Positions 15,960 through 60,590 of a DNA stretch of 64,000 nt are shown here, piece after piece. The notes below the pieces were generated by a model. It saw nothing but the letters and a program-made list of their open reading frames with translations, was not told the DNA's origin and ran no database searches. This DNA comes from Squalus acanthias (lineage: Eukaryota), in assembly GCA_030390025.1 (NCBI GenBank), contig CM059432.1:14634001-14698000 (forward strand). The letters run 5' to 3'. Made by a program: the position numbers and the translations under genes. The first letter of the stretch is position 1, and each line of letters opens with the position of its first letter.

Positions 15960-17212
15960 ATAGTGTCTGCGCTGCCCCCTTCAGGAATTCCCTTGGCCAC
16001 ATGTAAAGCGCCTCTACTTTGTGTGATGTGTGAATGATGTCCTCTTCGTGCTGGTATATTGTGTGTAACTCCATATTCTACAACTTAATCTACAGGATTC
16101 CTTTATGGAAGGTGTAAATGTGTTAGGCTGCGGGGTTCCCCAACAGTCTGTTGGGATTCTGGAGACCCAGAATTCACTGAATTTTGTGTTTTAAAGGCCC
16201 AGAAGTGTGGTGGACTGACTAGTGCTATCTGCTTTTAGTCATCTCCTCCAAAGCCTAGTGTGTCCTGGAAGGCCTATAAAGCTGAATCTCCTCACTGCAA
16301 TGCTCAATCCCTTCTTGATTTTGCTGAGTGGGCTGCTTTTCCAAGCACTGCTTCAGATGCTTAGCTTCCTTCTAATTGTTCTTCACAGATGATTAAGAAG
16401 ATTGGTGCTTCTCCTTTCTTACTGACTGGCCTGTTGTGCGGGAGATACAGCCCATATTTTAGCCCACAGACTTAAATAGCAAAATTAGGTGTACAGCCAT
16501 AGATGTAAATTATCCCCAAGCTTTTCAGTAATCCAGTTAACTCCCAAATAGAAATGTGAAGAGGGGGCGGGGGATAATTGTAACCTAACTCACCCGGCCG
16601 GAAACGGAAGGGATCAGATCGGCCGCCCGTTTTGCACGCCGCCCGATTTTACTCTTTATTGATTGAAATGTAAAGTAAAATTGGGCAGTGTGTAAATCGG
16701 GCGGCTGCTCTGGTCCCCTCAGTTTCCTTTCGTGTGGGCTGTGGTATTCATTCCTGCAACTTTTACGGTCAGACACTACTTTCTGCATATTCCCATTTCT
16801 GCCCTATCGGCAATGTTGGTTAACAAAGTTCATGTGATTCATTAATGGTTGCGGCAGTGATGGAATGACAGAGTTTGAACAATCTTACCATTGGATGGCC
16901 TGATTTACGACAAGCATTGAATTACCTTGAGGGAATATAGGAAATGTGACTCTTGCGGCTCTGTGATTAATTCTTGCAGTTTGCACTCATTTACTGCTGA
17001 AAGTTTCTTTACACCGCCCATGAGAAAAGTTCCCTTGGCTCTCCCTCATGCTTTGTTTCTAGTCTTATAGAATACATTTCAAACATCAGTATGTAAAAGT
17101 TAAATCACATATCATCCTTCCTTTCATGTGTTCTTTGCTCAAACATTCATTTTTCTCTCTTTTAGTTTCTGCAGTATTTTTCATATCCTCTGCCCAAATT
17201 TCTGATCAGATT

Positions 17213-18559
17213 TATTAAGGAAGTGGTAACAGGGCACTTGAGAAAATCATAACATGATTAGGCAGAGTCAACATGGTTTTATGAAAGAGAAATCATGTTT
17301 GACAAATTTATTAGGGTTTTTTGAGGATGTATCTAGCAGGGTAGATAAAGGGGAACCAGTGGATGTAGTATATTTAGATTTCCAAAAGGCATTCAATAAG
17401 GTACCACATAAAAGGTTGTTACACAAAATAAGAGCTCATGGGATTGGAGGTAATGCATTAGCATGGATAGAGGATTGGTTAATGGACAGAAAGCAGAGAG
17501 TTGGGATAAACAGGTCATTTTCAGATTGGTAGGCTGTAACTACTGGGGTGCTGCAAGGATAAGTGGTTGGGTCTCAGCTATTTACAATCTATATTAATAA
17601 CTTAGATGAAGGGACAGAGTGTAATGCATCCAAGTTTGCTGATGATACAAAGCTAGGTGGGAAAGTAAGCTGTGAAGAGGACACAAAGAGCCTGCAAAAG
17701 GATACAGACAGGTTAGTGAGTGGGCAATAAGGTGGCAGATGGAATAGAATGTGGGGAAATGTGAGGTTATTCACTTTGGTAGGAAGAAGAGAAAAACAGA
17801 ATATTTTTAAAATGGTGAGAAACTATTAAATTTTGATGTTCAGAGAGATTAAGGTGCCCTCGTACAGGAAACACAGAGTTAGCATGCAGGTACAGCAAGA
17901 AATTAGGAAGGCAAATGGCATGTTGGCCTTTATTACTAGGGGGTTAGAGTACAAGAGTAAGGAAGTCTTGCTACAATTGTACAGGGCTTTGATTAGACCA
18001 AACCTGGAGTACTGTGTACAGTTTTGGTCTCCTTATCTAAGGAAGGATATACTTGCCTTAGAGGCGGTTCAACGAAGGTTCACTAGACTAATCCCTGGGA
18101 TGAGAGGGTCGTACTAGGAGGGGAGATTGAGTAGATTCAGCCTATACTCTTTGGAATTTAGAAGAATGAGAGGAGATCTCATTGAAACATATAAAATTCT
18201 GAGGGGGATTGACAGGGTAAATGCTGAGAGATTGTTTCCCAGAGAGTCCAGAACTAGGGGGCATCGTCTCAGGATAAGGGGTCGGCCTTTTAAGACTGAG
18301 ACGAGGAGGAACTTCTTCACTCAGAGGGTGGTGAATCTTTGGAATTCTCTGCTCCGAAGGGCTGTGGATGCTCAATCGTTGAGTATATTCAAGGCTGAGA
18401 TAGATAGATTTTTGATCTCTAGGGGAATCAAGGGACATGGGGATCGGGCAGGAAAGTGGAGTTGAGGTCGTAGATCAGCTATGATCTTACTGAATGGCGG
18501 AGCAGGGTTCGAGGGGCCGTATGGCCTACTCCTGCTCCAAATTCTTATGTTCTTATGTT
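17213..18559 (+). mobile_element. CR1 LINE 3' fragment (RT)
   Basis: QHGFMK.KSCLTNL, YLDFQKAF, KFADDTK, LEYCVQFWSP; (TTCTTATG)n tail. Confidence 0.92.
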
Positions 18560-19579
18560 AATTACAAATAAAGCCCAGAGTAATGGGGTGAACATCTCCT
18601 TTGTCTGTTGGCTGTAAGAAGACTATATGAAATGAGTTTGAGGAATCTCAGCTGAGCTCTGAGTGGCTGTGAATCCAGTGCACAAACATTGCCTATCATT
18701 TGGAACATTTGGCATTAAAATTGGTCGCATTAATCAGCAAGGGCACAGGATGGCTGGGATAGGAATTAGAGAAGTCACATTAATTGTTCACACCATTTCT
18801 CCAGAAATTCCATCCACCTTCTGGCGAAGTTATGGTGGGAGATCAGGGAACCCATTAATAACAGCGCATGTCATTAACACGCCATTATGCAAGGAGGCTT
18901 CAAGGGGATATAGACAGGCTAAGTGAGGCAGGCAAGAACATGGCAAATGGAATATAATGTGGAGAAATGTGAAGTTATCCACTTTGGTAGGAAAAATAGA
19001 GCATTTTTTAAATGGTGAGAAATTGGGAAATGTTGGTGTTCAGAGAGACCTGGGTGTCCTTGTACACGAATCACTGAAAGTTAACATGCAGGCACAGCAA
19101 GCAATTAGGAAAGCAAATGGTATGTTGGCCTTTATTACAAGAGGATTTGAGTATAAGAGTAAAGACGTCTTACTGCAATTATATAAGGCCCTGGTGAGAC
19201 CACATCTGGAGTATTGTGTACAGTTTTGGTCTCCTTACCTAAGGAAGGATATACTTGCCATAGAGGGAGTGCAACGAAGGTTCACCAGACTGGTTCCTGG
19301 GATGGGGGGATTGTCCTATGAGGACAAATTGAGTAGACTAGGCCTATATTCTCTAGAGTTCAGAAGAATGAGAGGTGATCTCGTTGAAACATACAAAATT
19401 CTTACAGGGTAGATGCAGGGAGGATGTTTTCCCCTGGCTAGGGAGCCTAGAACAAGGGGTCACAGTCTCAGAATAAGGGGTCGGCCATTTAGGACTGAGA
19501 TGAGGAGAAATTTCTTCACTCAGAAGGTGGTGAATCTTTGGAATTCTCTACCCCAGAGGGCTGTGGAGGCTCAGTCGTT

Positions 19580-21577
19580 CAGCAACCGAAGAAGAAAGAG
19601 TCAAATTGGACCCCTCCGGAGGGTCGCTGCCCTAAGCTTGACATGTATGCTCAAGCTGTCAGGAAATGCATCAACGCCAGATTCATCAGCCGCACTCACA
19701 AGACAGTCCAGAATGTCACCCGAGCACAACGCAACGCCATCCATGCTCTCAAGACCAACCGCAACATCGTCATCAAACCAGCGGACAAAGGAGGAGCCAT
19801 CGTCATACAGAACAGAATGGACTATTGCAAAGAAGCATACCGACAACTGGACAACCAGGAACACTACAGACAGCTACCCGCAGATCCGACCAAAGAACAC
19901 ACCCGCCAACTCAATAGACTGATCAAGACCTTCGATCCAGATCTTCAAAACATCCTACGCGCTCTCATCCCACGTACTCCCCGCATAGGAGACTTCTACT
20001 GCCTCCCAAAGATACACAAAGCCAACACACCCGGACGTCCTATCGTATCAGGCAACGGAACCCTGTGTGAGAACCTCTCTGGGTACGTCGAGGGCATCCT
20101 GAAACCCATCGTACAGGGAACCCCCAGCTTCTGTCACGACACTACAGACTTCTTGCAGAAACTCAGCACCCATGGACCAGTTGAACCAGGAACACTCCTC
20201 GCCACGATGGACGTATCGGCACTCTACACCAATATCCCCCACGATGACGGCATCGCTGCGACAGCCTCAGTACTCAACACCAACAACAGCCAATCTCCAG
20301 ACGCCATCCTACAACTCATCCGTTTCATTGTTGACCACAATGTCTTCACCTTCGACAACCAGTTTTTTACCCAAACACACGGAACAGCCATGGGGACCAA
20401 ATTCGCACCCCAATACGCCAACATCTTCATGCACAAGTTCGAGCAAGACTTCTTTGCTGCACAGGACCTCCAACCAACGCTGTACACCAGATACATCGAC
20501 GACATCTTCTTCCTTTGGACCCACGGCGAAGGATCACTGAAAGGACTACACGATAACATCAACAGGTTCCATCCCACCATCAAACTCACCATGGACTACT
20601 CCTCAGAATCGGTTTCATTCTTGGACACACGAATCTCCATCAAAGACGGACACCTCAGCACTTCACTCTACCGCAAGCCCACGGACAACCTCACGATGCT
20701 CCACTTCTCCAGCTTCCACCCTAACCACGTTAAAGAAGCCATCCCCTATGGACAAGCCCTGCAACTACACAGGATCTGCTCAGACGAGGAGGAACGCGAT
20801 GGACACCTACGGACACTGAAAGACGCCCTCGTAAGAACGGGATATGACGCTCGACTCGTCGATCGACAGTTCCGACGGGCCACAGCGAAAAACCGCATAG
20901 ACCTCCTCAGAAGGCGAACACGGGACACAACCAACAGAGTACCCTACGTCGTCCAGTACTTCCCCGGAGTGGAGAAACTACGCCATGTTCTTCGCAACCT
21001 TCAACATGTCATCGATGACGACGAACACCTTACTAAGGCCATCCCCACGCCTCCACTACTTGCCTTCAAGCAGCCGCCTAACCTCAAAAGTACCATCGTT
21101 CGCAGCAAATTACCCAGCTGTCAGGAGAACAGTGACCACGACACCACACAACCCTGCCACGGCAACCTCTGCAAGACATGCCAGATCATCAACACAGATA
21201 CCATCATCACACGAGAGGACACTACCCATCAGGTACATGGTACATACTCATGTGACTCGGCCAATGTTGTCTACCTCATACGTTGCAGGAAAGGATGCCC
21301 CGGAGCATGGTACATCGGCGAGTCCATGCAGACACTGAGACAACGTATGAACGGACACCGCGCAACAATCGCCAGGCAGGATTGTTACCTTCCAGTCGGG
21401 GAACACTTCAGCAGTCAAGGACATTCAGCCTCGGATCTGCGGGTTAGCGTTCTCCAAGGCGGCCTTCGAGACACACGACAACGCAAAATCATCGAGCAGA
21501 AACTGATAGCCAAGTTCCGCACCCATGAGGACGGCCTCAATAGGGATCTCGGGTTCATGTCACGCTACAGAACGTGA
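19580..21577 (+). CDS. PLE reverse transcriptase / GIY-YIG endonuclease (N-terminally truncated, 665 codons)
   Basis: IKPADKGG, LPKIHK, GRPIVS, TMDVSALYTNIP, GTAMGTKFAPQYANIFM, RYIDD, FLD; Cys-rich linker CHGNLCKTC; VVYLIRC...WYIGES...RMNGHR. Confidence 0.92.
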   Translation, partial: QQPKKKESNWTPPEGRCPKLDMYAQAVRKCINARFISRTHKTVQNVTRAQRNAIHALKTNRNIVIKPADKGGAIVIQNRMDYCKEAYRQLDNQEHYRQLPADPTKEHTRQLNRLIKTFDPDLQNILRALIPRTPRIGDFYCLPKIHKANTPGRPIVSGNGTLCENLSGYVEGILKPIVQGTPSFCHDTTDFLQKLSTHGPVEPGTLLATMDVSALYTNIPHDDGIAATASVLNTNNSQSPDAILQLIRFIVDHNVFTFDNQFFTQTHGTAMGTKFAPQYANIFMHKFEQDFFAAQDLQPTLYTRYIDDIFFLWTHGEGSLKGLHDNINRFHPTIKLTMDYSSESVSFLDTRISIKDGHLSTSLYRKPTDNLTMLHFSSFHPNHVKEAIPYGQALQLHRICSDEEERDGHLRTLKDALVRTGYDARLVDRQFRRATAKNRIDLLRRRTRDTTNRVPYVVQYFPGVEKLRHVLRNLQHVIDDDEHLTKAIPTPPLLAFKQPPNLKSTIVRSKLPSCQENSDHDTTQPCHGNLCKTCQIINTDTIITREDTTHQVHGTYSCDSANVVYLIRCRKGCPGAWYIGESMQTLRQRMNGHRATIARQDCYLPVGEHFSSQGHSASDLRVSVLQGGLRDTRQRKIIEQKLIAKFRTHEDGLNRDLGFMSRYRT

Positions 21578-21845
21578 CTCGACATCGTTGTCTGTCTTTC
21601 CAGTTTTAAAAAAGAACACGAAAAAAAAACAAACAAAAAAAAACCAACCAAAAAAAAAGGTTAAAAGCTCAACTGCAGACGGCAACATTTGACACGTTGG
21701 ACCCCCTGTGACCCACCTCATTGTCTTAGCTGTACTCTGAGGTGTCTTTGATGTAATGCCTTCCTAACAGATTGTATCTCTGCAGACAAATTGCTCTCTG
21801 TGTATATATACTGTGTAATCGATTTGTATTCCCTCACTGTACCTG

Positions 21846-21880
21846 TACCTGAAGAAGGAGCAGAGCTCCGAAAGCTCGTA
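21846..21880 (+). ncRNA. Minimal type I hammerhead ribozyme motif
   Basis: UAC-CUGAAGA-A-GGAGC(AGA)GCUCC-GAA-AGCU-C-GUA: core, 5-bp stem II, palindromic AGCU in place of stem III, 3-bp stem I. Confidence 0.7.
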
Positions 21881-22271
21881 ATTTTAAATAAAACTGTTGG
21901 ACTATAACCTGGTGTTGTGCGACTTCTCATTATATTCAAGACAGGGATCGATAGATTTTTGAATATTAAGGGAATCAAGGGATATGGGGATAGTGCAGGA
22001 AAATGGAGATGAGGTAGAAGATCAGCCATGATCTTAGTGAATGGCGGAGCAGGCTCAAAGGGCCAAATGGCCGACTCCTGCTCCTATTTCTTATGTTCTT
22101 ATTATTTTTCCAGCAAGATTTGGCCCATCCACTTTTATCTCATTCAGCTGTGAACCCTTGCACCTTGTAAACCTGCTGTGTTATACTCACTGAGTACTGC
22201 CTTCTTAATGTGCAGCAATCAAGAGACAATTCTGCTGCAGAACAATTACTTATATATTATATATCTACATA

Positions 22272-23065
22272 GGGCGCGATCTCGCCAGCCCTGGGGAGGC
22301 GGGTATGGAGGCGGGACTGCCGGGAAAATGGCAGAATTTGGGGGCGGGTGCCCAACCTGCCTCCATGCTGTCTTCCCAGGAGGCGGGTAGCCGTCCTGCG
22401 CCGGGTCCCATTTCCTTGGAGGCGGGAAGGGATTAAAGCCTAAAATAGGATTTTTGCCCACACAAGTGCGGGCTTCCCGAAGGCTCCGAATCCCGCCAGG
22501 TCAGCAAGGCGAGTAGTGGGTCTGCGGGGGTCGGGGGGGGGTGCAAAAGTGTGCTGTGGAGGTGAGTGATGGGTGCAAGTGTGGAGAGCTGAGTATCTGA
22601 GGTAAGTGCAAAGTGTTGGAAAAAGTGTACTTACCTTTGTTTCTTCCTGTAGGCTTCAGTCGGTGGGTATGCGGAGTGTCTCGCACCTCCACGTTGGAGA
22701 TGACAGATGGACGTTGCATTCTCCAATGCAACAACCATCTAATTTCTGCAAAAGAAAGATGTTTGATGAGGTCTTGAATTCAAGACCTCAACAAACTACA
22801 GAGAATGTCACTGTTTGACAGCTTCACAGAGCTGTCAAACGATGACAATTCATCTGTCAAAGATTTTTGACAGATGAAACGTTATACGTTGACGTCGTCT
22901 GCAACTGGCTTTCTCTTAATTGGCCTGCTAAGCCCGCTGGGCGGGCTTAACAAGGTCAATCAAGGGAAAATAGTGTGGGTTGGCCAGAAGTTGTTGGAGG
23001 CGGGACTGAAACCCGACAAGTGGGAGTCCCGCCTCCAAAAGCTCCCCATTGGCAAAATCACCCCC
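22272..23065. mobile_element. Harbinger-type MITE (family B)
   Basis: TIRs GGGCGCGATCTCGCCA / TGGCAAAATCACCCCC, 3-bp TSD ATA. Confidence 0.75.
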
Positions 23066-24627
23066 ATATTGACTGGAACTAAATGCAGTAACCAGAGTTC
23101 AACGTGCTGGCCTCAGACTTACTAATTTAGCAGTTCAGTTCAGCTTTATTGATTGCTGCTCTAAAATGACTTAAAATGAATCCATAATCTAATCAATCAA
23201 TTTTATTACCTCTTCAAAGAATCCCATAAAACCTTTGTTTCTAAATCCTTGCAGATTATTCCAAATATCTGCTGAGATCTTTAGATGAATGAAGATAGCA
23301 TCCCGTCAAATGTTCATGAGAATTTTTATCACCAGTGATCAATTATTCTCAAGCTCATGTCACAATACTGTTTTGATATTTGGGATAACATTCACTGGCC
23401 TTCAATCCTTACCTGTAGCACCTGATGCAATTAAATCTTGCAACACAGCGCTGCTTCAAGAGGTGTACAAGCTACGGGTTAAATGGGGTGAGTTATGCTT
23501 TCAAGGCCAGATTCAATTCATGGAGCAGATGTATGGCTATCTTAATTAACTGAGGCTTTTTTCCCTCAGCTCTTAGAACTCATTGAAGATAAAATGGGTG
23601 TTGTACACAATAATTAAATAAATTAGTTCTGGCTTCTTTATGGTTTTCAGCTGGATAAGCATGGGATTTACATGCCCACAGGGGGAGAATCATTTCCAGT
23701 TCCTCGGCAGATAGTGTCTACTGGGAGAATTCCAATTATGCTGTCTTGACATAATAGGCAATCCAGAAACTATCAGTAGAAGGGAATCTATAAACAAGTA
23801 TTTGTGGAAATATGTGAATATATGGGAGTGGATCTACTGTCCACAAAGGAAGGAACATGATTAATTTGCAATGAAAATGTGAACTCAAGGATTTGTGGCT
23901 TATATTCAGCAAAGATCTGAATAGGGCAGCAGAGAGAGAGAATATTGGCAGAGTACACTCCAGTGAAAAGACCAAAAGACAGAAGGATCATCTAGCTCAA
24001 GGAGTCTACCATCTTGGTGAAAAATGCTCCGTTAACTGTACCATTGAAGTATTTTTCCTTCAATGATTACTATTGCACAAACATGTACTTCAGAGAATAA
24101 CAAGCAAAGACTGCAACTCGATCAGTAAATGCATTAGTATCTCTCACAGGAAAAGTGTTGAACTTTTAGCTTATAAAGAGCAGATTTGATGACAGATTGG
24201 AAAACAAATGGATTGCCCTGCCAGAAAGCTTGTTATTAGATAATAATGCTTGTTTCGGAAGGGAAGAGGAAGTGCGGCATAAGTAAGATGAAGGAATGCC
24301 AAAACAGGGTGAGCAGATGTGACTGAATCTGCAGACTATGACGTGACAGGAAACTGCTAACATTATTCCATTTGACTTGTTCTCGACAGGAAGCAACTTG
24401 ATGACTATGAATTGTCTTGGGATACGAGAGTGTAAATGGGGGAGGAGTGAAAAGCAGCAAGGGAAAAAGAAAGTCTCCTAGGAAGAAGCCACGAGTGACC
24501 CATGAACTTGGCAGGGGCTGCCTTCTCACAAGTTGTCATGATGCGGAGATACCGGTGTTGGACTGGGGTGGACAAAAATGAGAAGTCGCACAACACCAGG
24601 TTATAGTCCAACAGTTTTATTTGAAAT

Positions 24628-24662
24628 TACGAGCTTTCGGAGCTCTGCTCCTTCTTCAGGTA
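24628..24662 (-). ncRNA. Minimal hammerhead ribozyme motif (left arm)
   Basis: Reverse complement is identical to the motif at 21846-21880. Confidence 0.68.
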
Positions 24663-24689
24663 CAGGTACAGTGAGCCTCACTGTACCTA

Positions 24690-24724
24690 TACCTGAAGAA
24701 GGAGCAGAGCTCTGAAAGCTCGTA
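24690..24724 (+). ncRNA. Minimal hammerhead ribozyme motif (right arm)
   Basis: Same motif with C>T at the base of stem II (G-U pair). Confidence 0.6.
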
Positions 24725-26248
24725 ATTTCAAATAAAACTGTTGGACTATAACCTGGTGTTGTGCGACTTCTCATTTTTCTCACAAGTTGAAATGGCATGA
24801 AGCAAATCAGAATCTTGTTGAGAATGGTTGATTGGAAGTTCAGAAAGCTGCAATAGAATGTGACAGACATGCTTTTTGGTGCAAAATGCTGAAACTCTGA
24901 AGGACAATGATTATTTATTTTTCTACATTGTTTAAGCTCACCTATGTCGTGGCTGCGCTGCGCGGCTTGTCATCCTTACCATGCATCTTGACCATTACCA
25001 TGCAGGATCTTGTACTTATTATTTAATGTCTAGAAAACAGAAGTAGTTGGATGGAGATCTATCAGGTGATTTTACACATAGCTGACTGGAATGCAAACAT
25101 TAGTGTCCATTTTACAAGACCCTGCGCTGCCGCTGGGACCTCACGTGTAGCTGGTGAGGATCATCCATGAGCCTCTTTCCATTGATTTCGATGGGTGGAA
25201 AAGCAGAGGCAGTACATCCCTGATTTTGCATTCCCACCTGTGTATAAGGTGCCACTGGGGGTGTCAGAACTCAAAAAATGGATCCCTATATATCCAAGGT
25301 TATTACTACTAATTCTGTGCTGTACTCGCTTTATTTCACCCATTAGGTGCGCATCAAGTGTATGTGTACTGTACAGGAAAATGAAGGACGTTCCTTTTTA
25401 GGCTATTTTTATATCAACTCACGCCCGCATACATCACCTGCAGCTCGAGCAGTGAGAAACCTAATTACAGACCTCCATCATTCTATAAACCTGACTACAG
25501 AGACATTTCAATTTAATTTTGCTGCTAAGGTTGAACAATGTATTCCACGACACACAGTTTTTTTCCTGGTAATCAACCGTGCAGAATGATTGGATGAGCA
25601 CATAGGTCACACTGTAATAGTTAATCCTCACTGTGGATGTCGTAAGTTCGTTACATGGAGCTCACAGGCACTAATGCTCATCTCCAGCAACAAATCCACA
25701 CCTCCAAATTAGAATAATGGCCCATCTCCCTCCAAACAATCTTATACCGTTGTTCCGATAGCCATCATAAATTACTTGATTTTTCATCAAATCATTTGCC
25801 ATCTGATGGACCCTCACATCCTGCAATATTTAAACTGCACATGAACAATGATATTTTAATTTTTCAGAGAAAAGTTGAACATTCTTAGTTCTCCTGTTCA
25901 GTAGAAACAGAAATAAGGAGCAAAGGTTGACAGTGGCTCTTAAAATGTGAAGCTTTCACTTCCTGATTAGTTAGGCTGTTTTTAAAAATCAAATCCAGCG
26001 GAAAGGATTAATTTAAATAGTAAAATACATGTTTTAACTTTTCGTGTTGTATACTAAACTCAATGTCTATCCTATTGCTACAATCACCTCAGTCAATGTG
26101 TTTAAACAAAACACAATTAATAGTCTGGGGCAATTTGAAATAACCTCGATTGGATTGAGAAATGATGAATTGATTTTGTTAATTCTTGTTTGTCACTTTA
26201 AACTGCTCTCCACTGATTTGCTCTCATTTTTACTTTCTTTCCTTCTTG

Positions 26249-26687: not shown

Positions 26688-27790
26688 ATAAGAACATAAG
26701 GAGCAGGAGTGGGCCATACGGCCCTTCGAGCCTGCTCCGCCATTCAATAAGATCATGGCTGATTTTTGACCTCAACTCCACTTTCCCATCCAATCCCCAT
26801 ATCATTTGATTCCCCTAGAGTCCAATTTGTTGCTGGCCGCCTGCCAGCACCTGCCCCCGTTGCTGTCCCCGGCCCCCGTGAAGCCCCCCCACCGTGAAGT
26901 GCCGGCTGCGCTCCAAGAGCCCGGCACTTCTCTTGAGTGCCGGGCTCTTTTGCCGGCACTCCCGATCCCTGGGGGCCCAGCTGGGCCCCGGTTCGCGCTG
27001 CGCAGGGTCCCTCCCCTTTAAGAAGGGGAGGAAGGCCTGCAATACCGCGGCGCGACGTGCCGCAGCGCGTGGCGCTGCGGCACGTAGCGCCAGGATATTC
27101 ACTCGCAGCGCCCCAAGAGGGATGCGGGGTGCTTCCAGTGGCGCCCCGCTTCCCTCTTGGGGCGCAACCACTGAAGTTCCGGCGCGGGGCCGCTAATTTT
27201 TTCGGGACGCTAAAAGTCGCGCCCCGGCGAGGTTAGCGCCCCAAGTGGGGCGCGACTCAATTTTTACCCCCAAAAATCTATCTATCTCAGCCCTGAATAT
27301 ACTCAGCGACTCAGCATCCACAGCCCTTTTGGGTAGAGAATTCCAAAGATTCACAACCCTCTGAGTGAAGAAGTTCCTCCTCATCTCAGTCTTTAATGGC
27401 TGACCCTTATCCTGAGACTATGGCCCCTAGTTCTAGACTCTCCAGCCAGGGGAAACAACCTCTCAGCATCTACCCTGTCAATCCCCCTCAGAATCTTATA
27501 TGTTTCAATGAGATCACCTCTCATTCTTCTAAATTCCAGAGAGTATAGGCTCAATCTCTCCTCATAGGACAACCCTCTCATCCCAAGGATCAATCTAGTG
27601 AACCGTTGTTGCACCGCCTCGAAGGCATGCATGTCCTTTCTCAGATAAGGAGACCAAAACTGTGCCCAGTACTCCAGGTGTGGTCTCACCAAAGCCCTGT
27701 ACAATTGTAGCAAGACTTCCTTACTCTTGTTCTCCAACCCCCTTGCAATAAAGGCCAACATGCCATTTGCCTTCCTAATTGCTTGCTGTA
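26688..27790 (-). mobile_element. CR1 LINE 3' fragment interrupted by a GC-rich insertion
   Basis: KANGMLAFIARG...LEYWAQFWSP...RRNFFTQRVVNLWNSLP; tail at 26688. Confidence 0.9.
26826..27270. mobile_element. GC-rich Harbinger-type element remnant (one end retained)
   Basis: Interrupts CR1 at gagtccaa|...|caaaaatc (CAA duplicated); right end CAATTTTTACCCC resembles the other MITE termini. Confidence 0.6.
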
Positions 27791-29945: not shown

Positions 29946-32188
29946 TTTACAACAACAACGTGCATTTATATAGCGCCTTTAACGTAGTAAAACATTCCGA
30001 GACGCTAGGCGTAATCATACAAAAAAAAAATTGACACTGAGCCCATTAGGACAGGTGACCAAAACCTTGGTCAAACAGGTAGGTCTTAAGGAGGAGAGAG
30101 AGGTGGAGGGTCAGCGAACACAGGGGTGATGGGTGAATATGACTTGGTTTGAGTTAAGAGTTTTGGATGACTCAGGTGGAAGATCAGAGGCCGGCCAGGA
30201 GAGCATTTGAACAGTGGAGTCTGGAGGCAACAAAAGCATGGCAGAGACTCTGAACAAATATTTTGTATCTGTCTTCACTGTAGAAGACATTAACAACATC
30301 CCAATAATGGATAATCAAGGGGCCACAGGGAGGGGGGAACTAAAGACAATCACTATCACTAAGGGAAATAGTACTTGGTAAAATAATGGGACTAAAAGAC
30401 GACAAGTCCCCTGGACCAGATGGCCTGCATCCCAGGGTCTTAAAAGTGACTGCAGAGATAGTGGATGCATTGGTTGCAATATACCAAAATTCCCTGGACT
30501 CTGGAGAGGTCCCAGTGGATTGGAAAACCGCAAATGTAACAACCCTATTTAAGAAAGGAGGGAGACAGAAAGCAGGAAACTATAGACCAGTTAGCCTAAC
30601 ATCTGTCGTTGGGAAAATGCTGGAGTCCTTCATTAAGGAAGCAGTGGCAGGGCATTTGGAAAATCATAATGCAGTCAAGCAGAGTCAGCATGGTTTTATG
30701 AAAGGGAAATCATGTTTAACAAACTTGCTAGAGTTCTTTGAGGAGGTAACGAGCAGGGTGGACAAAGGTGAACCAGTGGATGTGGTGTATTTGGATTTCC
30801 AGAAGGCATTCGATAAGGTGCCACATAAAAGGTTACTGCATAAGATAAGAGCTCACGGAATTGGGGGTAATATATTAGCATGGATAGAGAATTGGCTAAC
30901 TAACAGAAAGCAGAGAGTCGGGATAAATGGGTCATTTTCCGGTTGGCAAACGGTAACGAGTGGGGTGCCACAGGGATCGGTGCTGGGGCCTCAACTATTT
31001 ACAATCTACATTAATGACTTGGATGAAGGGACCGAGTATAATGTAAACAAGTTTGCGGATGATACAAAGATGGGTGGGAAAGCAAGTTGTGCAGAGGACT
31101 CAAAGAACTTGCAAAGGGATATAGACAGGCTAAGTGAGTGGGCAAACATTTGGCAGATGGAGTATAATGTGGGAAAGTGCGAGGTTATACACTTTGGCAG
31201 GAAAATTAAAAAAGCAAATTATTATTTAAATGGAGAGATTTTACAAAATGCTACACTTCAGAGGGACTTGGGGGTCCTTGTGCATGAAACACAAAAAGTT
31301 AGCATGCAGGTACAGCAAGTAATGAAAAAGGCAAATGGAATGTTGGCCTTTATTTCAAAGGGGTTGGAGTATAAAAACAGGGAAGTCCTGCTACAACTGT
31401 ACAGGGTAATGGTGAGACCACACCTTGAGTACTGCGTACAGTTTTGGTCTCCTTATTTAAGGAAGGATATACTTGCATTGGAGGCAGTTCAGAGACGATT
31501 CACTAGGTTAATTCCAGAGATGAGGGGGTTGAGTTATGAAGAAAGGTTGAGCAGGCTGGGCCTATACTCATTGGAATTTAGAAGAATGAGAGGTGATCTT
31601 ATTGAAACATATGATACTGAGGGGACTCGACAGGGTAGATGCAGAGAGGATGTTTCCCCTCGTGGGGAAATCTAGAACGCGGGGTCCCAGTTTTAGAATA
31701 AAGGGTCGCCCTTTTAGAACTGAGATGAGGAGGAATTTCTTCTCTCAGAGGGTCGTAAATCTGTGGAATTCTCTGCCCCAGAGAGCCGTGGAGGCTGGGT
31801 CATTAAATACATTTAAGGTGGAGATAGACAAATTTTTGCAAGATTAGGGAGTGAAGGGTTATGGGGAGCGGGCGGGGAAGTGGATTTGAGCCCAAGATCA
31901 GCCATGATCTTATTGAATGGCGGAGCAGGCTTGAGGGGCCAAGTGGCCTATTCCTGCTCCTATTTCTTATGTTCTTATGGATGAGGGTTTCAGCAGCAGA
32001 TGGGCGGAGGCAGGTGTGAAGACGGGCGTTATTACAGAGGTGGAAGTAGGCGGTTTTGCTGATGGAGAGGATCTGGGGTCGGAAGCTCAGCTCAGGGTCA
32101 AATAGGGCACCGAGCTTGCGAACAGTCTGGCTCAGCCTGAGACAGTGGCCAGGGAAGGGGCTGGAATTGATGCCGAGGGAACGGAGTT
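29946..32188 (-). mobile_element. L2 fragment split (29946-30237, 31979-32188) by a CR1
   Basis: L2 tail at 29946; sequence aaagcatgg|atgagggtttcagc rejoins across the CR1. Confidence 0.75.
30238..31978 (+). mobile_element. CR1 LINE 3' part with a 429-aa open RT frame
   Basis: KSPGPDG, NYRPVSLTS, GVPQGSVLGP, KFADDTK; (TTCTTATG) tail. Confidence 0.93.
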
Positions 32189-39810: not shown

Positions 39811-40399
39811 ATGCAATTTAACCTCCACTCTGCCACAATGTCAAGGATTCCACTCCCACTCTTATCAAGTTCATCTTGATATTCTCTGAAAAGACTTCAT
39901 ACAATTCAATCCAGTCGGTGGGTTAATGTTGTATTTTATACTTTCAAAGTTGCTGGTACAACAACAGCAGTGAAAGTGGCTGGAATATTCTGGAAAGCTA
40001 TTCCGGCTCCTGACCATCGCCACGCAAGTGGTCTCCGCTGGTGCCAGGCTCTCTGTGTAATTGTCAGTCAGCTGTTCAAGAAAATGGACATCAAATATAG
40101 CCGACTACTGGAGGCAAACCCATGGATGAAGAGTTGGAGGTCAACAGGAAATGGGATTCTGGGATTTGGAGCAGTCTCAGTGATTTCAGAAAAGTAATAA
40201 ATAAAACAGATTATACGAGAAAGGGAAAGTAAGAGTAAGAGTAGAAGCAGGATAAAGCTCCTGCTACACTGGTCCAAGTTGTACTGTAACCCAGCCTCAG
40301 AAAGATCAACTTCTTCAATGTGACAGGTCCCTTTCCTACATGATGTGTTGCTTGAGTGAGGCTGATTATGTCGTGCTAAATTGTGACAAATTTATGAGC

Positions 40400-41370
40400 A
40401 TAAGAACATAAGAAATATGGGCAGGAGTAGGCTATTCGGCCCCTCGAGCCTGCATTCAATAAGATCATGGCTGATCTTCTACCTCATCTCCACTTTCCTG
40501 CACTATCCCCATATCCCTTGATTCCCTTAATATTCAAAAATCTATCGATCCCTGTCTTGAATATACTCAACGACTGAGCCTCCACAGCCCTCTGGGGTAG
40601 AGAATTCCAAAGATTCACCACCCTCTGAGTGAAGAAATTTCTCCTCATCTCAGTCCTAAATGGCCGACCCCTTATCCTGCGACTGTGACCTCCTGGTTCT
40701 AGACTCCCCAGCCAGGGGAAACATCCTCCCTGCATCTACCCTGTCAAACTCTCTATGGTAAGTACATCCTTCTTTAGGTAAGGAGACCAAAACTGTACAC
40801 AATATTCCAGGTGTGGTCTCACCAGCAAGAACAACAACAACAACAACTTGTATTTATATAGCGCCTTTAACGTAGTAAAATGTCCCAAGGCGCTGTACAG
40901 GAGTATTTTAAGACAAAAAAATTGACACCGATCTACATAAGGATAAATTAGGGCAGGTGACCAAAAGCTTGGTCAAAGAGGTTGGTTTTAAGGAGCATCT
41001 TAAAGGAGGAAAGAGAGGTAGCGAGGAGGACAGGTTTCAGCAGGGAATTCCAGAGCTTAGGGCCTAGGCAACAGAAGGCACGGTCACCAAAGGTTGAACG
41101 ATTATAATCAGGGATCCTCAAGGGGGCAGAATTAGAGGAGCGCAGATATCGTGGAGGGGTCGAGAAAACAAGTAGTGAGGTAGAGCTGGGTGTCATCAGT
41201 GTACATGTGGAAACTGACGCTGTGTTTTTGGATGATGTCGCCAAGGGGCAACATGTAGATGAGAAATAGGAGTGGGCCAAGGATCGATCCAGGGCCCTAT
41301 ATAATTGCAGTAAGACGTCTTTACTCTTGTAATAAAGGCCAACATACCATTTGCTTTCCTAATTGCTTGT
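40400..41370 (-). mobile_element. CR1 3' fragment with a nested L2 fragment (about 40826-41290)
   Basis: CR1 tail at 40400; L2 (AAC)n tail at about 40830; CR1 resumes at about 41292 (KANGMLAFITR). Confidence 0.8.
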
Positions 41371-44530: not shown

Positions 44531-44976
44531 GTATGAGGAGAGATTGAGTAGCCTAGGCCTATATTCTCTGGAGTTTAGAAGAATGAGGGGTGATCTCATT
44601 GAAACATACAAAATTCTTACAGGGCTTGACAGGGCAGATGCAGGGAGGATGTTTCCCCCGGCTGGGGAGTCTAGAACCAAGGGTCACAGTCTCAGAATAA
44701 GGGTCAGCCATTTAGGACTGAGATGAGGAGAAATTTCTTCACTCAGAGGGTGGTGAATCTTTGGAATTCTCTACCCCAGAGGGCTGTGGAGGCTCAGTCG
44801 TCAAGTATATTCAAGACAGATATCGATAGATTTTTGAATATTAAGGGAATTAAGGGATATGGGGATAGTGCAGGAAAGTGGAGATGAGGTAGAAGATCAG
44901 CCATGATCTTATTGAATGGCGGAGCAGGTTCGAGGGGCCGAATGGCCAACTCCTGCTCTTATTTCTTATGTTCTTA
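44531..44976 (+). mobile_element. CR1 3' fragment
   Basis: LGLYSLEFRRMRGDLIETYKIL; TTCTTATG tail. Confidence 0.9.
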
Positions 44977-58910: not shown

Positions 58911-60590
58911 AATAAAGTCTTGCATTTATATAGTGCCTTTCACGACCTCAGGACATCCCAAAGTGCTTTACAGCCAATGAAGTACTTTTGAAGTGTAGCC
59001 ATAATGTAGGAAACGTGGCAGCCAATTTGCGCACAGCAAGGTCCCACAAACAGCAATGAGGTATATGGCCAGATAATCTGTTTAGTAATGTCAGTTGCAG
59101 GATATATATCTGGTCACTGGGAGAACTCCCCTGCTCTTCTTCAATAAGTGTCATGGAATCTTTTACATCCATCTGAAAGGACACATTGGGCCTATACTCT
59201 CTGGAGTTTAGAAGAATGAGAGGTGATCTCATTGAAACATATGAGGGGGATTGAAAGGGTAGATGCTAAGAGGTTGTTTCCCTTGGCTGGAGAGTCTAGA
59301 ACTAGGGGGCATAGTCTCAACAATGAGAGGTCGGACATTTAAGACTGAGATGAGGAGGAATTTCTTCACTCAGAGGGTTGTGAATCTTTGGAATTCTCTA
59401 CCACAAAGGGCTGAGGATACTGAATCGTTGAATATATTCAAGGCTGAAATAGACAGATTTTTGGACTCTCGGGGAATCAAGGGATATGGAGATTGGGCGG
59501 GAAAGTGGAGTTGAGGTCGAAGATCAGCCATGATCTTATTGAATGGTGGAGCAAGCTCGAGGGGCCATATGGTCTACTTCTGCTCCTAATTCTTATGTTC
59601 TTATAGGGCCTCGGTTTAATGACTTCCTCGGTACTGCACTGAAGGCCGGGATCTTACCTGAAGAGGCGCGTTGGGGTGGGACTGCTGCCTTTCGGGTTCT
59701 AGCCCCGCCTCCAGCGACGTCCGACGCATAGACGCTATTTTGCGTCAATTGACCTTGTTAAGCCGCCCTGTGGGCTTGCCGGCCAATTAAGAGAAAGCCG
59801 GTGTCAGATGACGTCAGTTGATGACGTGTTATCTGCTGGTTTTCTTAAAGGGGCCACCACCATTTCTTTTTGACAGATGATTTTTCAGTGTTTGACAGCA
59901 TTGAGGTGTTGCAAGCACTGACAATCACTGTACAAAGGTGAGCCCTTGCACCCAGACTCTCCAGTGACTCTCTCCTTAGGCTAAAACAGATGGCAGCTGC
60001 AGGTGAGGTTACAGAAGCGATCTGTCACTGGTGAGAAAGGTTATCCCAATGAAGTGGGACTACACAAACACTTCAACGTTTATCACCTACAGAAAATTCT
60101 AAACACATTAAAAATTACTTTCCCAACATTTTCTTACCTCTGCAACTCGCCAGTGTCCCAATGGATCCTTCACACCACTTCTGCAGCTGTCATCTACACA
60201 CAAACATTGCAGTAGACCCACAGCACGCCTCACTTACCCTGGCGGGGTTTCCCGACGTCGGGAAGCCTGCAGTAGAAGTGTCAAAATTGGAAAAAGCCTC
60301 TTAACTGCCTGTGAACAAGCAGTTAAGTGGCTATAATCCTCTTCCCGCCGCTAGGAGTTGGGTCCCTGCGCAAATCGGGAAGATTGATTGGAGGCGGGTT
60401 CGGGACCCGCTGCCAATCTTTTTGATTTTGCCAGCAGTTCCGCCTCCAAACCCGACCCCTGAGCGCCGGCAAAATCCCCCCCGAAGTGTCAGCCTAGCTT
60501 CTGTGCTCAAGTCTCTGGGAGTGGGGCTTGAACGCATGACCTTCTGTCTCAGAGGCTAGAGTGCTATGACTAAGCCAAGGCTGACACCTT
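58911..60590 (-). mobile_element. DeuSINE broken by a CR1 3' fragment (59181-59604, +) and a MITE (59644-60482)
   Basis: SINE tail at 58911, middle at 59605-59643, head at 60483-60590; gtactgcactgaa|gtgtcagcctag rejoins. Confidence 0.75.
59644..60482. mobile_element. Harbinger-type MITE (family B), inverted relative to 22272-23065
   Basis: Ends GGCCGGGATCTTACC / GGCAAAATCCCCCCC, TSD GAA. Confidence 0.7.

Follow-up and report, generated by a model that had tools for sequence, protein, structure and literature searches.

A 241-bp palindromic insert of Squalus acanthias: the known insertion architecture of Penelope-like elements reduced to its two pLTRs

We analysed a 64,000-nt stretch of the Squalus acanthias genome, called the window below (positions 1-64,000, to which all coordinates refer), and in it a palindromic insert of 241 bp at 24536-24776. 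This unit belongs to no new class of element; it is an ordinary by-product, now dead, of a Penelope-like element (PLE) that is very abundant. Its architecture is the one already known for PLE insertions, namely an inverted pseudo-long terminal repeat (pLTR), a tail and a target site duplication (TSD), here reduced to the two pLTRs. We consider it quite probable that the unit is a minimal insertion of an endonuclease-type PLE, composed of two head-to-head pLTR/mRNA leaders of about 100 nt, one of them tailed, within a 13-bp TSD, and likely built de novo on site.

The insert is flanked by two copies of the 13-bp repeat TTCTCACAAGTTG, at 24523-24535 and 24777-24789 (no strand assigned to either), and an exact repeat of 13 bp placed precisely at both ends of the 241-bp insert is not due to chance. 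At other loci with this kind of unit the TSDs are different repeats of about 10-14 bp. The uninterrupted (empty) target of the window insert would read ...CCTTCTCACAAGTTGAAATGG... Between the two TSD copies, the insert begins with the PLE tail in antisense orientation (24536-24573, minus strand, 38 bp), which in the sense direction is AC-rich and ends with CATCATGA. It continues with a left arm (24574-24675, minus strand), a junction base C at 24676 (no strand) and a right arm (24677-24776, plus strand). The left arm is an antisense copy of the pLTR, extending over the mRNA leader from an initiator (Inr)-like CTCACTG to the reverse-transcription start site A, and carries a minimal hammerhead ribozyme (min-HHR) motif on the minus strand at about 24627-24663. 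The right arm is a sense pLTR copy with its min-HHR at 24689-24725, which ends at start site A (CTCATTT) without a tail. The right arm can be taken to start with the C at 24676 (CCTCACTG), in which case the two arms abut without a spacer.

These limits agree with the output of the repeat finder, which delineated inverted arms at 24571-24675 and 24677-24781 (105 nt, 97% complementary, 1 nt apart) and no inverted partner for the 38 bases of 24536-24573. The arms differ from each other at two positions, in each case through a change private to the right arm: G>A at 24689 (helix I) and C>T at 24713 (position 11.1). A PLE copy located 2.6 kb upstream matches both arms: its positions 21833-21931 correspond to the left arm, inverted (99 nt, 99%), and 21832-21938 to the right arm in the same direction. 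An earlier note on this DNA had described the bounding direct repeat, the two inverted arms with a 1-nt spacer, two mismatches and a 38-bp extension, and had matched the arms to the 3' end of the upstream PLE and likened the whole to an inverted PLE terminus with a short extension. As an observation this is confirmed, the extension being the known PLE tail.

The origin of the tail is revealed by a tandem junction at locus L087 (G000:C1:5496415-5499637), where the order in the sense direction is pLTR, tail, ATG. The open reading frame (ORF) starting at this tail-end ATG runs uninterrupted for at least 526 aa. Over 303 aa it shows 96% identity with the protein of the window PLE copy, and it supplies the N-terminal 223 aa absent from the latter, which is truncated. 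Therefore, the tail forms the 3'-terminal 38 nt of the leader of the PLE mRNA, with the ATG of CATCATGA included. The same tandem junction was found at locus L148, where the frame stops after 29 aa. The end of the arms, CTCATTT(TT), is read as the other reverse-transcription start site. Some right ends of other loci extend by a few bases into tail sequence (CATTTTTGTCC...), as expected from a scattered start site. In all 28 aligned loci (28/28) the tail is conserved at one end only, and all the TSDs differ. We also considered that the tail might continue into element sequence at most loci. This was rejected on the basis of an all-against-all comparison of 100 upstream flanks, where the shared flanks were mostly other repeats and the only true tandem junctions were those of L087 and L148.

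The 23-mer spanning the tail/arm junction has 8984 and 8962 exact matches in the genome (about 17,900), and its reversed control has none. By this count the PLE group belongs to the major repeats of the 3.7-Gb genome. To describe the units carrying this junction, we used as a positional sample the first 100 listed places of the junction 23-mer on contig C1, with arm lengths accurate to about 3 nt in either direction. Palindromes were recognised at 44 of these 100 tail ends, unequal arms or a spacer at 15, and no inverted partner could be detected within 1.6 kb at 41. The mean arms of the 44 palindromes range from 40 to about 475 nt and are unevenly distributed: 9 palindromes lie below 83 nt, 23 between 83 and 108 nt, none between 109 and 151 nt and 12 at 152 nt or more. 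Bare mini pairs thus make up 23 of 100 sampled tail-bearing ends, about a quarter. They come from at least three subfamilies, and their centres vary within and between subfamilies, differing in detail even among close relatives of the window insert. Similarly, in an independent sample of 30 loci retrieved with the tail plus 27 nt as query, the left arms measure from 41 to more than 1588 nt and are often unequal to the right arm. At one sampled locus, L085 (G000:C1:5190074-5193464), 168 bp separate two tail-bearing ends, and a mini pair has inserted into the TATA region of another PLE copy. A limited search of the main full texts of the published literature found no paper naming bare head-to-head pLTR pairs as an abundant class.

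The arms of the mini cluster stop 0-20 nt 5' of the hammerhead core and none is slightly longer. The upper edge of these arms falls at a conserved Inr-like motif, 14-20 nt 5' of CUGA in L111, L085 and L066 and 16-17 nt in the window insert. In the window PLE copy, a pLTR core promoter is predicted on the plus strand at 21803-21838, comprising TATATATA at 21803-21810 and, about 30 nt downstream of this TATA-like box, the Inr-like TCACT at 21834-21838 with its A at 21836. The arms of the insert begin at the equivalents of 21832/21833, which places their start 3-4 nt 5' of the A predicted as +1. We scored the promoter-like motifs in 40 long copies from at least three subfamilies. The TATA-like box was present 37-48 nt 5' of the CUGANGA box in 36/40 copies, the motif TCA[CT][TA]G in 31/40 (with its A at -13 from CUGA in 26) and both motifs in 29/40. 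The Inr-like site may well be a real transcription start. The predicted fold of the sense leader RNA is not better than that of shuffled sequences (z -0.95), despite a stem pairing GUUGGACU with AGUCCAAC around start site A.

The arms of a same unit do not always belong to the same subfamily. Both helix II/loop strings were readable in 15 of the 22 sampled minis, with identical strings in 7 and unlike strings in 8. In these mixed minis each arm carries a different common subfamily loop type, the same pair of types is met in both orientations, and over their final 55 nt the arms differ at only 0 to 5 positions. The presence of different subfamily loops implies that the arms of these 8 minis come from two templates and not from one copied palindrome. 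Among 26 close relatives of the window insert we counted 52 arm-arm differences, few of them recurrent, and the commonest (C/A at position 32, 4 loci) is a subfamily marker. Mixed arms argue against pure snap-back and against the copying of a palindromic master, and they fit one cDNA primed per target strand.

These features can be accommodated by the following scheme. The PLE protein would nick both target strands and reverse transcription would be primed on each nicked strand and would begin at two sites inside the RNA, immediately 5' of the ORF. The cDNAs would run off the nearby 5' end of the RNA, in the manner of a strong-stop product, and the two cDNA ends would then be joined by host repair or template switching. 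Both-strand priming and the use of two start sites are proposed here by analogy with the PLE of Anolis in vitro, where both strands of the target are cut and extended by the element's protein and reverse transcription starts at two internal sites, the sequence between them being the tail (PMC11167929). By the same analogy, the unit would be unable to transpose again and is likely dead on arrival, because it does not include the RNA lying 3' of the tail, which is required by the Anolis enzyme (PMC11167929). We further advance, tentatively and at a little less than an even chance, that PLE integration in vivo has left a fossil record in the mini-palindromes. In these, the inner ends would mark the 5' end of the PLE mRNA at the TATA/Inr promoter of the pLTR and the outer ends the two reverse-transcription starts flanking the 38-nt tail. 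One event would use two RNAs, one per target strand, via a dimeric ribonucleoprotein, and reverse transcription would start at the 5'-proximal site about as readily as at the 3' one, making dead, strong-stop-like products a major output.

Several observations weigh against priming on both strands followed by run-off. The positional sample covers the first 15.6 Mb of one contig and required an exact 23-mer, which favours young copies. Most arms of the cluster end 1-9 nt 5' of CUGA, short of the Inr-like A at -13, and a few extend to between -14 and -20. One sharply defined 5' end of the RNA thus does not explain all the ends, some falling short of the Inr-like A and others beyond it, and arms short of the motif would need end trimming or dispersed starts. 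The long equal-armed palindromes (12/44, mean arms of 152-475 nt) are not explained by run-off and need copy-back or switching at palindromic microhomology. Together with the small palindromes found at some centres, GAATTC in L066, GGAGCTCC in L079 and GGTACC in L105, these long equal arms suggest that copy-back or switching of this kind also occurs. At the window locus itself, two-strand priming and self-priming are indistinguishable, the arms being of the same subfamily type, with 2 differences and at most 1 nt between them. Finally, Pfam gave no GIY-YIG match for the protein of the window PLE copy, either on the whole ORF 19499-21577 (E<=0.01) or on its last 142 aa (E<=10). The C-terminus of this ORF looks GIY-YIG-like by eye (...VVYLIRC...WYIGES...R...NGH). 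The ORF has an RVT_1 domain (Pfam, E 5e-9), its nearest Atlas clusters are animal RT/GIY-YIG proteins that it matches with a score of 0.98, and GIY-YIG is present in 52-77% of the members of the two nearest ones.

A few palindromes (L079, L143 and similar ones) have their centre exactly on the helix II hairpin (GGAGC-loop-GCTCC), which makes their arms about 70 nt long. Longer palindromes that later lost their middle, or switching at this inverted repeat, may account for them.

Among the alternatives, the one that survives best is self-priming, or snap-back, in which the 3' end of a leader cDNA folds back and copies itself before the hairpin is sealed into the target. Such a model, read from palindromes at inverted junctions, was proposed for the head-to-head PLE repeats of Adineta vaga (PMC3846280). 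It would account for the same-type, abutting arms of the window insert, and for the many palindromes of any length with equal arms and 0-7 nt between them, including those centred on the small palindromes of L066, L079 and L105. However, copy-back of one cDNA cannot yield the different subfamily loops seen in 8 of 15 readable minis. Copy-back of a tailed arm should moreover give a tail at both ends, and the full tail was found twice in 0/28 aligned loci. We regard self-priming as unlikely.

A second alternative, far less probable, is the one suggested in the earlier note: a coding-free palindromic mini-retroelement, transcribed as a unit and mobilised in trans, which would keep its inversion point and resemble a retrozyme or a viroid. 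A search with the whole 241 bp gave about 40 full-length matches at 88-98% identity, extension included, but 40 of 893 first-look candidates were scored, and they form a set selected for likeness to the query. Both arms end within about 1 nt of CTCAC in 9 of 26 aligned loci, and a few arm-arm differences recur, such as the C/A of position 32 or the two differences shared by L014 and L023. Against a fixed inversion point, the exact 23-nt centre of the insert is present at only 4 loci in the genome, as compared with the roughly 17,900 tail junctions, and the spread of arm lengths and the variable centres in at least three subfamilies, described above, tell the same. The earlier note had itself proposed the inversion points as a test of its reading, and the outcome goes against that reading. 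The mixed minis speak against a copied palindrome, and the occurrence of their arm combinations in both orientations is equally at odds with such a unit. Both outer ends coincide with reverse-transcription start sites, as predicted by two priming events, which a 5'-truncating copy of the unit would not produce; and the unit lacks the sequence 3' of the tail required in the template of the Anolis enzyme. A transcript of the whole unit, finally, folds as a perfect hairpin of about 100 bp (-187 kcal/mol, z -28), and this predicted fold would bury both ribozyme motifs.

The likeness to retrozymes is not retained either. Retrozymes are direct or tandem repeats from which small circular RNAs arise by double self-cleavage. 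Unlike them, the insert consists of one inverted pair, carries one sense motif on each strand, is expected to fold into a hairpin, and contains no direct repeat of the hammerhead motif within its 241 bp according to the repeat finder. What the metazoan retrozymes (PMC7229834) share with it is to be non-coding and hammerhead-bearing and to be thought dependent on PLE-type machinery.

The last alternative, a miniature inverted-repeat transposable element (a DNA transposon with terminal inverted repeats of about 100 bp resembling a PLE end) or a fold-back artefact of the assembly, is very improbable. The long terminal inverted repeats and the TSD speak for it. Against it, the arms share 99% identity with the terminus of an element encoding a reverse transcriptase (RT), the asymmetric 38-nt tail at one end is the leader of the PLE ORF, and TSD length varies between loci. 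An artefact is excluded by the occurrence of such units at thousands of places over many contigs, with a TSD of its own at each locus.

We then analysed the hammerhead motif. The catalytic boxes CUGANGA...GAAA...UH are present in both arms and in the window PLE copy (CTGAAGA, GAAA and GCTC). In the right arm they occupy, on the plus strand, positions 24693-24699 (CTGAAGA), 24700 (A), 24701-24713 (GGAGC/AGA/GCTCT), 24714-17 (GAAA) and 24718-21 (GCTC); the left-arm hammerhead is the mirror of these boxes on the minus strand. In the PLE copy, the min-HHR spans 21845-21881 on the plus strand and consists of helix I (GTAC), CTGAAGA at 21849-55, A at 21856, GGAGC-AGA-GCTCC at 21857-69, GAAA at 21870-73 and GCTC at 21874-77, with a predicted cut after 21877, before GUAA. 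Besides the boxes, min-HHRs are characterised by a base between positions 9 and 10.1, a G10.1-C11.1 pair, a palindromic 15.2-16.2 stretch and the lack of helix III (Cervera and de la Pena 2014, PMC4209133). All these features are found in the PLE copy, where 15.2-16.2 reads AGCU, and the right arm carries a U at 11.1 (24713). Over 117 distinct instances of the motif, collected with a regular expression that fixed the boxes and hence does not measure their conservation, the changes in the helix II stem are wobble-compatible only, the loop has 3-9 nt, and N7 is A, C, G or T across copies. The search against Rfam returned no family at the gathering threshold on the whole window and no hammerhead at E<=10 on 21700-24900. 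The complete hammerhead announced for each arm in the earlier note is thus upheld as regards the boxes and accessory features of a min-HHR, and it is a motif that no Rfam model scores. Sub-threshold matches of the hairpin to miRNA precursors in Rfam (mir-1597, 48 bits for a gathering threshold of 93) were discarded, since they reflect any long hairpin.

Published min-HHRs cleave poorly and only as dimers (PMC4209133), and cleavage has been reported with the PLE protein present (PMC11167929). In several subfamilies (L092, L129: GTCAG/GTAAGT), the reverse complement of the hammerhead 5' box and helix I resembles the 5' splice donor CAG/GTAAGT. This likeness may be due to chance or may bear on the antisense transcription of PLEs, a subject discussed in PMC3846280. 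We examined whether hammerhead cleavage could be the cause of the arm ends. Cutting at the predicted site would leave arms of about 53-58 nt, and no cluster was detected there among the 44 palindromes; a single one lies near the predicted cut (L093, with arms beginning 1 nt short of it), and this explanation was rejected. The hammerhead motifs travel as passengers of the leader, and this product does not require them.

Parallels to the proposed origin exist in other retroelements. In the twin priming of L1, both ends of a staggered break prime cDNA, which gives rise to an inversion, and different parts of one RNA become inverted. The minus-strand strong-stop DNA of retroviruses is a short cDNA that runs off the 5' end of the RNA. 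As in LINE-1 twin priming, both ends of the break would prime cDNA in our case, but the two cDNAs would be copies of the same leader, begun at an internal start that is defined by structure; as in strong-stop DNA, the product would be a short cDNA ended by run-off at the RNA 5' end.

The closest counterparts are other PLEs. General features of PLE insertion units are an optional tail of 30-40 bp at one end and an inverted 5'-truncated copy (PMC8557442). Endonuclease-bearing (EN+) PLE units such as Pen2a_Av of Adineta vaga resemble the insert in their head-to-head inverted pLTR (PMC8557442, PMC3846280). In the rotifer, an inverted pLTR stands head-to-head with a direct pLTR, with a tail at one end (31 bp versus 38 bp here) and a TSD (9 bp versus 13 bp here). 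The pLTR of Pen2a_Av also has in common with ours the hammerhead motif and the succession of TATATATA and an Inr-like TCACT, separated by about 20 bp in the rotifer (PMC3846280). Unlike in Pen2a_Av as described there, nothing lies between or beyond the two pLTRs of the insert, with no ORF and no second direct pLTR, which makes it a bare 5' junction. A frequency of such bare pairs (23/100 here) was not found stated in the available parts of these two PLE descriptions.

The Poseidon PLE of Anolis carolinensis (PAc, PMC11167929) shares with the shark element a tail lying between two reverse-transcription starts near the ORF start, an AC-rich start region, AT-rich targets and a hammerhead just 5' of the start sites, and its cleavage and extension of both target strands would give exactly this head-to-head product. 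The start sites are 111-118 nt inside the ORF in PAc, whereas the tail ends at the ATG in the shark element. The min-HHRs of metazoan PLEs (PMC4209133) resemble those reported here in their CUGANGA/GAAA boxes, unpaired base 9/10.1, G10.1-C11.1, AGCU and lack of helix III. In Schistosoma, dual motifs occur on opposite strands about 100-700 bp apart (PMC4209133). Helix II has 5 bp here, versus 7-8 bp in the Schistosoma families (PMC4209133), and helix I only about 3 bp.

The neighbouring PLE copy (19583-21931, plus strand) is of the same family as the insert and encodes the RT and the GIY-YIG-like C-terminus, its 5' part being lost. It sits inside another repeat, an empty-site homologue of which is found at 40566/40565, and has no TSD, no tail and no inverted partner. 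It served as a reference for the arms and probably is not their source, although the earlier note describes the arms as copies of its end: it is a 5'-truncated dead copy inside another repeat, and the closeness of the arms to it is not evidence of parentage because the genome contains many thousands of relatives. Assembled contigs over 21400-24900 cover repeats only, leaving 23155-24441 bare.

The interrupted repeat, which we call repeat X, is present in the window at 17211-18557, at 18890-19582 and 21931-22102 (the copy interrupted by the PLE, with a loss of 3 bp, GAG, and no TSD), and at 27271-27790, 30629-31979, 40399-40747, 44532-44976 and 59190-59604. Contig depth across 21985-22101 is by far the highest of 21400-24900, indicating that part of repeat X is extremely abundant. 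The AT-rich site of repeat X occupied by the window PLE (19582/21931) is also hit in L089, L090, L103, L104, L123 and L139; its flank reads ...GTTGAGTATAT/TCAAGATG... and the insertions there are independent. A second shared site of repeat X is found in L061, L125, L141, L150 and L151. These shared sites look like a preferred target, or like a target having microhomology with the start of the tail.

For the window locus the interest of these results is low, since its architecture has already been described and is found here in its smallest form, an inverted pLTR with tail and TSD; the locus is to be masked or annotated accordingly. As a record of PLE integration, the population of minis is of moderate interest and has some value because this integration is poorly understood. 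With thousands of copies in the genome, perfect hairpins of about 100 bp could give rise to double-stranded RNA and could cause trouble in assembly or replication. The limit of arm length at the TATA/Inr-like site, the mapping of the tail and the mixed arms provide testable in vivo support for both-strand priming, for the internal initiation of reverse transcription reported in vitro for one lizard element, and for the use of two RNA templates per event.

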